Origin: Escherichia phage MirsaeidiM_Esher7
Sequence record: PQ593108.1
Reading direction: 5' to 3' (one strand)
Length of the DNA: 40,430 nucleotides
Shown: piece after piece, positions 22,729 to 28,838 of the stretch
How positions within the stretch are numbered: position 1 is the stretch's first letter
Layout: every line of letters starts with the position of its first letter
Notes under the pieces: generated by a model
What the model was told of the DNA's origin: nothing
Database searches by the model: none
The model's input: the letters and a program-made list of their open reading frames with translations, nothing else
Translations under genes and position numbers: made by a program

Positions 22729-22751
22729 AGTCCCTATAGTGATAGTTTAGT
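22729..22751 (-). promoter_or_regulatory. phage RNAP promoter (phi6.5-like)
   Basis: Plus-strand motif ccctatagtgatagtttagtg between the exonuclease gene and gp6.5. Confidence 0.75.
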
Positions 22752-22877: not shown

Positions 22878-23744
22878 TTACATGGATGGTGTCCATATGA
22901 TGACCTCCTTGGACTTAGGGTCATAGTCAGATGCTCGACAAATACGAGCGACCTGAGCTTGGACCAGAAGCTCCTCCTCTGTCATCCCAGCTTTAGCAGC
23001 CAGAGTCACCATGCAGTCCCACAACGTCATGTCTTCACGCTTCGGATACTTCTTCCACTCAGTCTTAATCTGGCCTTTGTTCTTGCCAGTCTTAAGCTCG
23101 CGGCTCTCCTGCACGAAGTAGTACGGCTCGTCAAGGAATGCACGAGTGGTATCCTCACCCATCCCAGGAATGCCACCGTAGCCATCTGTAGTGTCACCTT
23201 TGATGGTCTGCTCCATGTGCCAGTAGTCTGCCTCAGCAGTCGTATGACTCAGGATTTCACCAGTGGTTAACCAGAAGAACTCACAGTTCGGGATGGTCTT
23301 GAAGTCCTTATCGCAGGACACCAGAACAGCATGGTCACAGCCTACAATCTGAGGTCGTGTCCCGATGATACCCATACAGTCATCGCCTTCAAGCGTAGGA
23401 CGCAGGAAGCTGTTGAACCGTTGGTCGGCCATCACTTCGGCTACGAACTTCTTGTATCCTACAGGCTTGCGCGAACCTTTACGGTTGGCCTTATAGGTAG
23501 GTAATATTGACTTGCGCCAGTTCACGTCATCGGTGAAGCACATCACAATCTTAGCGTCTTTCCACGCCTTGCGCTTCTTAACGATTTCAGCGATGGTGTT
23601 CTCAAGGATACGACGAGCCTTGGCGTGGTCGCAGATAAGGGTCCAGATGTCATCACCCCAGTCAGTCTCGTCCTCGGCAGCAGCCATGGAAGAATAGACC
23701 AGATAGTCGCCATCCAGTACCAGAGCAATCTTCTTGTCAGACAT
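22878..23744 (-). CDS. 5'-3' exonuclease (T7 gp6-like)
   Basis: 288 aa; strong similarity to recalled T7 gp6 (VLDGDYLV, CDHAKAR, YKANRK, CDKDFKTIPNC, IKGDTTDGY, WDCM, AKAGMTEE). Confidence 0.92.
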   Translation of the reverse strand: MSDKKIALVLDGDYLVYSSMAAAEDETDWGDDIWTLICDHAKARRILENTIAEIVKKRKAWKDAKIVMCFTDDVNWRKSILPTYKANRKGSRKPVGYKKFVAEVMADQRFNSFLRPTLEGDDCMGIIGTRPQIVGCDHAVLVSCDKDFKTIPNCEFFWLTTGEILSHTTAEADYWHMEQTIKGDTTDGYGGIPGMGEDTTRAFLDEPYYFVQESRELKTGKNKGQIKTEWKKYPKREDMTLWDCMVTLAAKAGMTEEELLVQAQVARICRASDYDPKSKEVIIWTPSM

Positions 23745-23962
23745 TACGCCTCCTCAACGATACACACTGAAGAGAATGCACGTACCGTCTCGACTTCCTC
23801 GGTAACTCCTTCCCAGCGTGTAAATGTCTTGTGCTTGATGGCTACCGTCTTAGGCATTACCCGGACGACTTCGCCTATACACATTGCGTATGACTTTCCA
23901 GCCAGACAGAAAGCAACCTTCTGTCCTACCTTAAGTTCGCGTCCTGATACGTCTTGATTCAT
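23744..23962 (-). CDS. hypothetical protein in the gp5.9 slot, not resembling T7 gp5.9
   Basis: 72 aa; ATG with GGAGG RBS; start overlaps the gp5.7 stop (ATGA) and stop overlaps the gp6 start (TAATG); sequence is unlike the acidic T7 gp5.9 that I recall. Confidence 0.6.
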   Translation of the reverse strand: MNQDVSGRELKVGQKVAFCLAGKSYAMCIGEVVRVMPKTVAIKHKTFTRWEGVTEEVETVRAFSSVCIVEEA

Positions 23963-24168
23963 AGACAGCCTCCGTGTTGATTTAGGAACTTGGTGCCTTC
24001 AGCGGTAATCTCCCACGCACCGTTGTTACGCCCATCCATAGACAGGCAGCTTAGATGTCCACGACTCGCAGCCTCAGCCACAAGTGCAGCGTTGTTGCGC
24101 ACATAGTTGGACTGGAAGGTCTTCGGGCAGGACTTAAGGGCCGCTAGGACCAGTAAGTATTCACTCAT
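23959..24168 (-). CDS. gp5.7-like protein
   Basis: 69 aa; near-identical in pattern to recalled T7 gp5.7 (LKSCPKTFQSNYVRNNA.LVAEAASRGH...GAWEITA.GT.FL). Confidence 0.85.
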   Translation of the reverse strand: MSEYLLVLAALKSCPKTFQSNYVRNNAALVAEAASRGHLSCLSMDGRNNGAWEITAEGTKFLNQHGGCL

Positions 24169-24458
24169 CGTTCGAACTCCACCCGGAAGTTACCAAAGCT
24201 CGGCTGGTTCCGATAGCAATTGCTCAGTTCTTCTTTCAGCCTCCCGACGATACCTTTCTTGAAGATCAGTTCGACTACAGCTTCCAGACCTTCAGTTACA
24301 CCAACCTCTACCATCTTACGCTCGAACCCTGAGACTTTCTCACCGTTCAGAACCTTACGGCTCAGCCCACAGAGAGACTTCTCGAACTGCTTCACGTCTT
24401 CAGTAGACAGCACAGCACCCAGCGAGAACGATACTCGCATACGTTTGGTCATAGCCAT
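24165..24458 (-). CDS. gp5.5-like protein
   Basis: 97 aa; begins MAMTK... like T7 gp5.5; position after the DNAP-distal small ORF. Confidence 0.7.
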   Translation of the reverse strand: MAMTKRMRVSFSLGAVLSTEDVKQFEKSLCGLSRKVLNGEKVSGFERKMVEVGVTEGLEAVVELIFKKGIVGRLKEELSNCYRNQPSFGNFRVEFER

Positions 24459-24619
24459 TAGTCTTTCTCCTCTTCGGCATCAGGTGTAAGAAGCTCACGG
24501 ATGTCAGAAGCACAAGACCCTGACAAGTTCGGGCAATAGCGAGAGGTCTCGTGACCACTCCACCAAGCACTTCTCATAAGGTCTATGACCTCCTGTCTTG
24601 TAAAGGTCTGCTTCTTCAT
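24458..24619 (-). CDS. small hypothetical protein (53 aa) in the gp5.3 slot
   Basis: ATG at 24619 overlaps the DNAP stop (TGATG), GGAAGGAG RBS upstream, stop overlaps the gp5.5 start (TAATG). Product MKKQTFTRQEVIDLMRSAWWSGHETSRYCPNLSGSCASDIRELLTPDAEEEKD. Below the 60-aa cut-off of the supplied ORF track. Confidence 0.45.
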   Translation of the reverse strand: MKKQTFTRQEVIDLMRSAWWSGHETSRYCPNLSGSCASDIRELLTPDAEEEKD

Positions 24620-26790
24620 CAATGACACTCCTTCCACGTTGGTCCAATCTTACCTTCGGTATCAAGGACACATTTAAAGTTATAGAACTCACCAACCTTA
24701 CGCATAGCAAGTTGAGCAATTTCTACTACGCGTTCTGCTAAGTCCTTGTTTTTACAGGCAATTTGTAGCTCATCGTGCACCCATGCCATGTACGCAAAGT
24801 CTCCATCCCAGCCGTGGACATATCCTTCGGCTTCGAGCATACGCTCGGTCTCGACAATCCAGTGCTTACAGACCACAGCACCATCACCTTGAAGTAATGC
24901 GTTAAGTGCTGAGTGTGGAGACCGGATGTGGATGCGTCGACCATCCAAGCCTTTAAGCCAGCGGCGTTTCCACTTCACGATATTCTCACCGTCTACCCAT
25001 TTGGACTCAGAGATTAACGTATTACTCACAGCTTCCCTGAGGTCCTTGATGGCTGGTGTACCCTCAATGAATTTCTTCATCAGGGCCGCACCTTCCTTCT
25101 TACCACCGCCAACTATCAGTCCAATCTTCGCGGCCCCTGCACCATACAGGAACGCATAGATGAACGTCTTGGCGTTATTACGGAAAGCATCGTGGTCGTG
25201 GTTCGACTTATCGCGTTGGACGTTAGGTGCTAACCCAGCGTTGACAGCGTTGGCCCAGTGGATGTCACCTTCTACCACAGTCTTGGCGTATTCACCACCA
25301 TCAAACGGAGCCGCTCGGTTCCCCAGACAACGAAGCTCAAGACCTGAAGCATCCACACCCACTTGAATCCAAGGGTCTGGCTTACCATCCGTCTTGTTCC
25401 AAGCTGCACCGAAAGCACCACGGCAAATCTCACCATACGGAGCACCGTTAGCAGGTACCTGAGCCATGTTTGGTGAACTGTGAGTCGCACGTCCAGTTAC
25501 TGCTCCGCATGGGTTGATTGAACCGTGCATACGTCCGTCTGGACCTACAAGTTTCAACCATGCGTTCTTACCTTCAGCAGCCTGACCTATGCGCTTCTGG
25601 ACTACCAGATACTCACGGACCAGCTCTACGCAAGCCTGAGCCTCTGCGTCCGGTAACTTAACGTGTTCTAACGTCTCGTCATCGACTACAGGTTTCCCGG
25701 TGTCAGTGAAGTCCACAGGCTCCCAGCCACGCTCCATCAGAACTTTCGCTAAGTGGTCCCCGCTTCCCGGATTAAACTCAACGTAAGTGATAGGTGTGAA
25801 CGGCGCTCCCTCCATCGTGTCTCGTGAGTCTAACTCGCAAGGCTCCAGACCTAAGCGTTGAGCTTTGTTCTTCGGCTTCTTGAATACTGACCCGACCTTA
25901 GGATACACGACGCGCGGATACTTCGGAAGGTCCTTGCCTGTCCGTGGGTGCTTTAAAAACTCCTTGCCACCCTTCGGTGCATACCAGCTACCGAAAGTCG
26001 AACGCAGCTTGTCCAGCAGCTCTGCACGTTTGACGGTTAGTTCACGATATAAGCCTTCGACCATCTCGGTGTTCATCGGATAGCCGTTACGCTCCATCTT
26101 CGCACAGGTCCACGCAGCATCATGTTCCAGACGCAACGCATAAATCTGGTCGAAAGCGAACTGTTCAGACTGGAAGTAATACTTGTCAGTCAGGAACTTC
26201 TTGAACAACGCCAGTGTGACCACAACGTCTTGAACGTTATAGTCCAGCATCTCCTGAGACGGGAACAACCATTCGTCTCCAGCCTTATATTCGATACCTT
26301 CAGCCTTGCACTTGGCAACGTAATCGTGTTTGTACTCACCTTTCATCTCACCGAGACGATAGCCCCAAGCCTCAAGAGACTGGCGTCCCATCATCTTAGG
26401 TGGCAGACGACCAGCTTTCACCGCGCCCATGTCTGAGAACTTAATGTTTGGATACATCAAGCGTCCCAGAACTAAGGTATCAATCATCTTATGTTTCGGG
26501 AAGTTAAAGCGTTTCCCAAAGTACAAACGCTTCAGCTTGTCTATAGCCGGGACGTCATAGTTGATACCGTTATGGAATACCAGCATACCATCAGGTGATG
26601 CGGCAATCTCTTCCACTTTATGAACATACTCTTTGAAGCCGCCGACGATACCGACCATCGGAGCTACCCCATACTTAAGGGTCTCATTCGACTCGGCGTT
26701 AATCAGGACCCCACAGTGAAACTGGGAGACTGTATCAAGGAGACCGTTGGTCTCGATGTCAGAACCCCAGATACTCTTAAGGTCAAACAT
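24619..26790 (-). CDS. DNA polymerase (T7 gp5-like, family A with 3'-5' exonuclease)
   Basis: 723 aa; extensive similarity to recalled T7 gp5 (DIETNGLL, QDVVVT, NGAVTGRATH, GIDASGLELRCL, AKTFIYAFLYGAG, DFAYMAWVHDE, terminal ...GPTWKECH); GGAGG RBS. Confidence 0.97.
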   Translation of the reverse strand: MFDLKSIWGSDIETNGLLDTVSQFHCGVLINAESNETLKYGVAPMVGIVGGFKEYVHKVEEIAASPDGMLVFHNGINYDVPAIDKLKRLYFGKRFNFPKHKMIDTLVLGRLMYPNIKFSDMGAVKAGRLPPKMMGRQSLEAWGYRLGEMKGEYKHDYVAKCKAEGIEYKAGDEWLFPSQEMLDYNVQDVVVTLALFKKFLTDKYYFQSEQFAFDQIYALRLEHDAAWTCAKMERNGYPMNTEMVEGLYRELTVKRAELLDKLRSTFGSWYAPKGGKEFLKHPRTGKDLPKYPRVVYPKVGSVFKKPKNKAQRLGLEPCELDSRDTMEGAPFTPITYVEFNPGSGDHLAKVLMERGWEPVDFTDTGKPVVDDETLEHVKLPDAEAQACVELVREYLVVQKRIGQAAEGKNAWLKLVGPDGRMHGSINPCGAVTGRATHSSPNMAQVPANGAPYGEICRGAFGAAWNKTDGKPDPWIQVGVDASGLELRCLGNRAAPFDGGEYAKTVVEGDIHWANAVNAGLAPNVQRDKSNHDHDAFRNNAKTFIYAFLYGAGAAKIGLIVGGGKKEGAALMKKFIEGTPAIKDLREAVSNTLISESKWVDGENIVKWKRRWLKGLDGRRIHIRSPHSALNALLQGDGAVVCKHWIVETERMLEAEGYVHGWDGDFAYMAWVHDELQIACKNKDLAERVVEIAQLAMRKVGEFYNFKCVLDTEGKIGPTWKECH

Positions 26791-28815: not shown

Positions 28816-28838
28816 CATCCCTAAGGTGATAGTTTAGG
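28816..28838 (-). promoter_or_regulatory. phage RNAP promoter variant upstream of primase-helicase
   Basis: Plus-strand motif ccctaaggtgatagtttaggc (TAAGG instead of TATAG in the core); the predicted transcript starts GGGAUGGGAC-CAUUA-GUCCUGUCCC, a 10-bp 5'-terminal hairpin. Confidence 0.6.

Follow-up and report, generated by a model that had tools for sequence, protein, structure and literature searches.

What does a T7-like phage carry between genes 5.7 and 6 when the gene found there is not gene 5.9? The question is raised by Escherichia phage MirsaeidiM_Esher7 (sequence record PQ593108.1), whose whole stretch of 40,430 nucleotides is called the window here. An open reading frame (ORF) of 72 amino acids (aa), hereafter ORF72, occupies positions 23744..23962 of the minus strand (72 codons plus the stop codon, which is included in the coordinates), where T7 has gene 5.9. 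The product of the T7 gene, gp5.9, is an acidic alpha-helical coiled-coil DNA mimic that inhibits RecBCD, and the structure of its dimer has been reported (PMC9836394). A preliminary description of the locus had placed the 72-aa ORF between conserved genes 5.7 and 6, judged it to be unlike the short acidic gp5.9, and proposed that it might be a functional replacement, with a different anti-nuclease or anti-defence protein expressed in the same setting. The placement and the conservation of the flanks were borne out. The left flank of the slot, gene 5.7 (23959..24168, minus strand; phrog_1334), encodes a protein 77% identical to T7 gp5.7 (E value 3e-42). The right flank, the gene 6 5′-3′ exonuclease (22878..23744, minus strand), is 51% identical to T7 gp6 (E 4e-107), and its product also matches Pfam 5_3_exonuc_N and phrog_107.

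The preliminary description had also called for sequence and structure searches and for a comparison with K1F-like genomes, and both were carried out. The searches assigned ORF72 to the DUF7205/phrog_2251 family, with a predicted beta-barrel fold and no homology to gp5.9. The comparison showed that the slot is empty in K1F and variable among its Kayfunavirus relatives.

ORF72 and T7 gp5.9 compared

The dissimilarity of ORF72 to gp5.9 was confirmed. BLASTP of ORF72 against T7 gp5.9 (sequence from NC_001604) gave no alignment even at E ≤ 100, and PF25708 (Phage_T7_Gp5_9) did not match ORF72 at E ≤ 1. Alignment of the ORF72 family profile with T7 gp5.9, and with the gp5.9-family protein of a Kayfunavirus, returned an hhalign probability of 0.1%. 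The Pfam model, whose gathering score is 24.5 bits, gave 27.8 bits with T7 gp5.9 and 55.8 to 62.8 bits with the genuine family members found in the slot of related phages. The possibility that ORF72 is a gp5.9 homologue was thus ruled out by BLASTP, Pfam and hhalign.

The two proteins also differ in character. T7 gp5.9 is acidic, with an isoelectric point (pI) of 4.1 and a charge of −8.5, and other members of its family reach −14 to −16. In contrast, ORF72 is near neutral (pI 7.7, charge +0.6), and whereas gp5.9 is an alpha-helical coiled coil, ORF72 is predicted to be all-beta. ORF72 is not a DNA mimic. What the two genes have in common is their position between genes 5.7 and 6 in the class II transcription unit, their small size and their non-essential nature; of the features that define the gp5.9 family and could be tested here, ORF72 has the position only. 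No gp5.9-family gene was found elsewhere in the window either by tblastn (best E 0.18) or by a profile search of its six-frame ORFs, which came back empty.

As a separate observation, the gp5.9 family (PF25708) is modular. T7 gp5.9 and the acidic proteins of the ‘VDNWEWY’ type share little directly, and a 61-aa ORF (59 aa from its second Met) in locus L081 (2701-2886) joins a T7-like N-terminal half to a VDNW-type C-terminal half, as seen by comparison with T7 gp5.9 and with loci L017 and L040. Taken alone, the T7 type of gp5.9 is present in no more than 187 of the GenBank records searched.

ORF72 and the DUF7205 family

Residues 2 to 71 of ORF72 match phrog_2251 (E 3.4e-22). Proteins 74 to 96% identical to ORF72 carry the precomputed Pfam assignment PF23835, which is named DUF7205 in the gene table of a Pseudomonas phage. 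The label therefore reaches ORF72 through its relatives; the copy of Pfam that was scanned matched no member of the family, apparently because it was without that model. All matches returned by a word-index search carry PF23835, except two truncated copies, and the names given to them by their sources, where there are any, are ‘hypothetical protein’. ORF72 thus adds to a family that is already catalogued, though without an assigned function, and whose size, predicted fold and pattern of conserved residues it shares. Many deposited genomes list the gene as encoding a hypothetical protein.

Homologues of ORF72 were detected by tblastn in 153 GenBank phage records. They comprise 27 Kayfunavirus-type phages with 80 to 99% identity, among them EcoDS1, whose homologue is 93% identical to ORF72 and annotated only as ‘unknown product’. 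Pseudomonas phages, with approximately 40% identity, account for the remaining 126 records, and those examined are Pakpunavirus myoviruses (PAK_P1, PaP1, JG004 and others). When 1.84 billion cluster representatives were searched with a profile, 94 clusters were found at E ≤ 1e-3, nearly all of 60 to 90 aa. The family consists of single-domain proteins of 60 to 90 aa that range from T7-like podoviruses to Pseudomonas Pakpunavirus myoviruses, exemplified by ACF15807 of EcoDS1, ACF15859 of Klebsiella phage K11 and YP_004327181 of PAK_P1. A search for paralogues of ORF72 found none, either in T7 or in the rest of the window.

The family is held together by a small set of conserved positions. Asp4 is present in 100% of 81 family representatives, Val16 in 98%, Gly13 in 96%, Lys38 in 89% and Arg61 in 87%; Gly7, Gly30 and Val40 complete the list of near-invariant residues. 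ORF72 has all eight (D4, G7, G13, V16, G30, K38, V40 and R61), each of which occurs at 82 to 100% in the family alignment of 85 sequences from which the residue frequencies were taken (ORF72, the 81 representatives and three slot cassettes). ORF72 belongs to the ‘VAFCLAG’ subtype, which it has in common with Pakpunavirus, and its identity to the remaining DUF7205 subtypes from the slot, that of Klebsiella and Salmonella phages among them, is only 19 to 31%. These other subtypes match phrog_2251 as well and align with ORF72 (hhalign E 2e-5).

The ratio of nonsynonymous to synonymous substitution rates (dN/dS) between ORF72 and four orthologues is 0.09 to 0.49. Together with the large number of homologues, this shows that ORF72 is a real gene under purifying selection, not a chance ORF.

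The AlphaFold2 model of ORF72 is a five-stranded all-beta barrel (mean confidence score, pLDDT, 87), and the predicted fold is SH3/Tudor/KOW-like. A Foldseek search of the Protein Data Bank with this model returned nothing below E 1e-3, the best matches being ribosomal barrels; against viral models it retrieved only uncharacterised phage proteins, mostly of T7-like phages and Pakpunavirus. The nearest folds include the KOW domains of NusG and Spt5 and the ribosomal eL21/eL27 barrels. Likeness to known barrels of the Tudor, KOW and SH3-like type (the KOW domains of Spt5 and NusG, the Tudor domain of SMN, the C-terminal domain of ProQ) is at the level of the fold only, with 8 to 21% sequence identity, and because the fold is too generic no function can be transferred from it. 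No match of ORF72 at E ≤ 1 was found with KOW (PF00467), with the Tudor families or with the ‘Phage ProQ C-terminal-like domain’ (PF24203, Phage_ProQ_C_like). The last of these gave sub-threshold matches in 8 of 18 relatives (best E 1.6e-4, under the 27-bit cut-off), and a literature search for it returned no paper. A likeness to ProQ had first been suggested by eye from the string ‘VGQ.LKV.AG.NAM’; homology to the C-terminal domain of Escherichia coli ProQ was set aside after an hhalign comparison that was not significant (E 0.5). As a whole the family is mildly basic: among the 81 representatives the median pI is 8.8, 44% have a pI above 9 and 1% are acidic.

The gene 5.7/gene 6 junction is a hotspot for accessory cassettes

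We surveyed the slot in 83 loci, namely 80 viral contigs that encode gp5.7 together with T7, EcoDS1 and K1F. Twenty-six loci are of Kayfunavirus type, with gp5.7 84 to 99% and gp6 85 to 98% identical to those of the window, and the other 57 belong to other genera. Between these nearly identical flanks the content of the 26 slots varies widely. The slot is empty in nine, K1F included, with the stop codon of gene 5.7 overlapping the start codon of gene 6. It holds a gene of the ORF72 type in four loci and a DUF7205 member of 91 to 94 aa, 31% identical to ORF72 and likewise assigned to phrog_2251, in another five. A 149-aa protein (phrog_4382) is encoded there in five loci, a 110-aa protein (phrog_18166) in two, and a 66-aa acidic protein of the gp5.9 family (PF25708, 55.8 bits) in one (L017). 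The filled slots of Kayfunavirus-type phages therefore contain five types of cassette from at least four unrelated families. The junction between genes 5.7 and 6 is an accessory-gene cassette hotspot, with conserved flanks and variable content among close relatives. ORF72 is dispensable, because close relatives, including K1F, are without it, and it is exchanged horizontally.

The same families recur in the slots of the 57 loci from other genera, along with a 58- to 60-aa family (phrog_12303) and a zinc-ribbon protein of 42 to 44 aa, and cassettes sometimes follow one another in tandem, two or three deep. Across T7-like phages, six or more unrelated families have been found in the slot, of which DUF7205 is the most frequent (23 of the 83 loci). 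Its Klebsiella/Salmonella-type subtype was found in a further 104 GenBank records, mainly of Klebsiella and Salmonella phages, and in the records that were checked, including that of K11, the gene lies between 5.7 and 6. Apart from the gp5.9 family, the occupants are uncharacterised: DUF7205, the 58- to 60-aa, 129- to 150-aa and 96- to 123-aa families, and the 42- to 44-aa zinc-ribbon protein.

DUF7205 genes are also found outside this slot. They follow a homologue of gene 2 and precede the gene for the single-stranded DNA-binding protein (SSB) in L087 and L100, follow the ligase gene in L101, lie between genes 5 and 5.7 in L085 and adjoin a helicase-like gene in L099. In Pakpunavirus the DUF7205 gene is located one gene upstream of those for deoxycytidylate (dCMP) deaminase and ligase. 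A degenerate DNA pattern search returned seven loci, two of which were false positives. L100 is a T7-like gene set within a 232-kb contig of Pseudomonas fluorescens, and probably represents a T7-like element that was either integrated or co-assembled. In L100 (8350-8904) and L101 (1981-2541), a gene for a Gad2-like protein (Pfam PF26128, the anti-Gabija family) adjoins the primase-helicase gene; the match is weak in L100. The presence of Gad2-like genes in gene sets that also carry DUF7205 is another sign that gaps in the class II region hold counter-defence genes.

The boundaries of the cassettes are stereotyped. At the left boundary, the stop codon of gene 5.7 overlaps the next start codon in the sequence CTATGAG(T/C). 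At the right boundary, the first codons of gene 6 form the sequence G-ATG-AGT-GA, whose TGA serves most cassettes as stop codon, and many of the encoded proteins thus end in ‘..DE’. The ATGAGT common to both boundaries might favour recombinational exchange of cassettes, or it might merely reflect translational coupling.

A similar tail of approximately 18 residues, encoded just upstream of gene 6, ends cassettes of three unrelated families, the long forms of DUF7205, the 149-aa protein and the 110-aa protein (loci L004, L005, L013, L014, L016, L018, L026, L033 and L082). It reads, for instance, ‘KLLAATVPAMSKAKAVSDE’, ‘PLLGATLAMAKGGLRDE’ or ‘LMPATVAVATGGLDDGF’. A 136-aa protein (P0020) has the tail internally, where it separates a DUF7205 domain from a zinc ribbon. 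The ‘GGL’ of the tail is encoded by the GGAGG that serves gene 6 as ribosome-binding site; ORF72 is without the tail. The idea that this tail (‘LLAATVPAMS...’) represents a displaced N-terminal extension of gp6 was dropped, as the N terminus of K11 gp6 is not similar to it.

Some copies of ORF72 itself are altered in length. Truncated copies of 37 and 52 aa are present in Enterobacter phages 01_vB_Eclo_IJM (P0142) and 02_vB_Eclo_IJM (P0016), respectively, and the copy in L008 (2707-3042) is extended at its C terminus by 39 aa, among them part of the shared tail. The truncated and extended copies point to ongoing decay and remodelling of the cassette.

The minus strand is the coding strand throughout the window. 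Following the course of transcription, the gene 5 DNA polymerase (26790-24619) is followed by a 59-aa ORF (24458-24637; phrog_20928), gene 5.5 (24458-24165), gene 5.7, ORF72 and gene 6, and then by genes 6.5, 6.7 and 7. ORF72 is tightly embedded in this series: its ATG overlaps the stop codon of gene 5.7 in ATGA (23959-23962), and its stop codon, TAA, shares bases with the gene 6 start codon in TAATG (23742-23746). Reading of the sequence also placed a GGAGG ribosome-binding site for ORF72 within the last codons of gene 5.7 (23969..23973, minus strand) and one for gene 6 within the codons for the C-terminal ‘EEA’ of ORF72 (23749..23753, minus strand).

Using the phi6.5 promoter of EcoDS1 as the query and allowing up to three mismatches, we found 10 promoter matches in the window, all on the minus strand, where none would be expected by chance. 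The nearest phage-type (K1F/EcoDS1-like) match upstream of ORF72 is at 28818..28838 (minus strand). An exact match to the annotated phi6.5 of EcoDS1 lies downstream of gene 6 at 22731..22751 (minus strand) and marks the end of the transcription unit of ORF72. As this search gave no match between 28838 and 22751, genes 5, 5.5, 5.7, ORF72 and 6 appear to be co-transcribed.

The 8-kb region around ORF72 is approximately 95% identical to that of K1-specific Kayfunavirus coliphages, for example PhiNW-B1, Vec13 and K1F. The 59-aa ORF, which overlaps the last part of gene 5 and precedes gene 5.5, has no equivalent in EcoDS1 and K1F, where gene 5.5 directly follows gene 5. The gap between genes 5 and 5.5 is thus a second variable slot, which holds gene 5.3 in T7.

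Possible roles of ORF72

The proposal that ORF72 replaces gp5.9 has to be divided. It is plausible that the slot holds some other protein directed at the host or its defences and expressed in the same setting, because the junction behaves as a hotspot and the gp5.9 family is among its alternative occupants. The specific claim of a replacement for gp5.9 as RecBCD inhibitor is not supported, for reasons given below. Binding of host proteins is the mode of action of characterised small class II proteins of T7, namely gp1.2, gp2, gp4.5, gp5.5, gp5.7 and gp5.9. Phage accessory regions, as described in two earlier studies (Silas et al., bioRxiv 10.1101/2023.04.06.535777; EVADES, bioRxiv 10.1101/2025.06.06.658234), have conserved flanks, tandem cassettes and content that varies among near-identical genomes, and the 5.7/6 slot resembles them further in having a known anti-defence gene, that of the gp5.9 family, among its occupants. 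Under this concept, hotspots that contain known anti-defence genes are enriched for others.

Given what small class II proteins of T7 do and the accessory-region concept, the reading that we favour, tentatively, is that ORF72 is an interchangeable accessory cassette that would act by stoichiometric binding of a strain-variable host macromolecule. It appears to be co-transcribed with the class II genes of DNA metabolism, and its translation is coupled to that of genes 5.7 and 6. Its product would bind a host macromolecule whose importance depends on the strain, either a component of a defence system or another host factor, and would do so through a surface of the beta-barrel on which the conserved Asp4, Lys38 and Arg61 lie.

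Several observations weigh against this proposal. ORF72 matched no entry in PADLOC or in NCBIfam, no solved homologue was found, and literature searches for DUF7205, PF23835, phrog_2251, the accessions and a peptide string found no paper in the library searched. The generic SH3-like fold predicted for ORF72 would be equally compatible with nucleic-acid binding, and a mildly basic charge combined with constant neighbours from DNA metabolism could mean that the protein has a role with phage nucleic acids.

The main alternative follows from these last points. The DUF7205 barrel might bind RNA or single-stranded DNA and so tune replication, recombination or gene expression of the phage, with no host protein as its target, which we regard as possible but rather unlikely. 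That the protein binds one or the other, a host factor or nucleic acid, is probable. The basic pI of most of the family is in keeping with it, as are the proximity of the model to the KOW domains of NusG/Spt5 and to the eL21/eL27 barrels, the sub-threshold PF24203 matches in relatives, and the fact that the DUF7205 gene is always found among genes of DNA metabolism (those for exonuclease, SSB, ligase, polymerase and dCMP deaminase). However, ORF72 itself is near neutral and has no PF24203 or KOW match, and the comparison with E. coli ProQ was not significant. Moreover, since DUF7205 is dispensable and without a fixed neighbour, no core enzyme has it as an obligate partner.

It is improbable that ORF72 is a non-homologous replacement of gp5.9 that inhibits RecBCD without DNA mimicry, for example through binding to one of its subunits, as P22 Abc2 does to RecC. 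RecBCD inhibitors of unrelated folds do exist, as gp5.9, Gam and Abc2 illustrate (PMC9836394). ORF72 occupies the slot and the transcription unit of T7 gene 5.9, and the window has no gp5.9-family gene anywhere. However, the slot is empty in K1F and eight other close relatives, so that there is nothing there to replace, and a true PF25708 protein is found in the slot of the Kayfunavirus relative L017. The two families also occur together. In the cultured Klebsiella phage vB_KpnP_BIS33, gene 5.7 is followed by a DUF7205 gene (68 aa), a 58-aa ORF, a gp5.9-family gene (55 aa) and gene 6, and the slot of viral contig L068 is organised in this way too, with DUF7205 and a gp5.9-family gene. Within the 83 loci, co-occurrence was observed once, with approximately two cases expected, and there is no sign that the two exclude each other. 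The presence of DUF7205 in other slots and in Pseudomonas myoviruses, and the non-acidic, predicted all-beta nature of ORF72, argue in the same direction.

It is hardly credible that ORF72 is a functionless filler or a decaying remnant, maintained only as a passenger of recombination between genes 5.7 and 6: truncated copies exist in the two Enterobacter phages and the slot is often empty, but the low dN/dS, the retention of the invariant residues across 81 diverged representatives, the confident and compact model, the good ribosome-binding site and the coupled start and stop codons of ORF72 all oppose it.

Taken alone, ORF72 is one more copy of a catalogued unknown, an unnamed ORF in the annotations of EcoDS1 and K11, and variation of non-essential genes in the T7 group will not surprise the specialist. 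Its context is what makes it useful, as the 5.7/6 junction is a compact and precisely bounded slot, a known occupant of which, gp5.9, targets a central hub of host immunity. We found no mention of the 5.7/6 hotspot or of DUF7205 in the papers of the two accessory-region studies or in their text supplements; one of the two left out Pfam-annotated proteins by design (bioRxiv 10.1101/2023.04.06.535777; 10.1101/2025.06.06.658234).

Natural, near-isogenic phages exist in which the slot is empty, holds DUF7205 or holds a gp5.9-family gene, and the function of each cassette is therefore directly testable. A more far-reaching idea, which we consider doubtful, is that DUF7205 is a new class of counter-defence or host-takeover protein, a small SH3-like barrel that would neutralise a host system which varies between strains but is conserved from Enterobacteriaceae to Pseudomonas. 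Candidate targets would be RecBCD, inhibited otherwise than by DNA mimicry, or a defence directed at phage DNA during replication or recombination. If this were true, the 5.7/6 junction of T7-like phages would be a counter-defence island with at least five further families.

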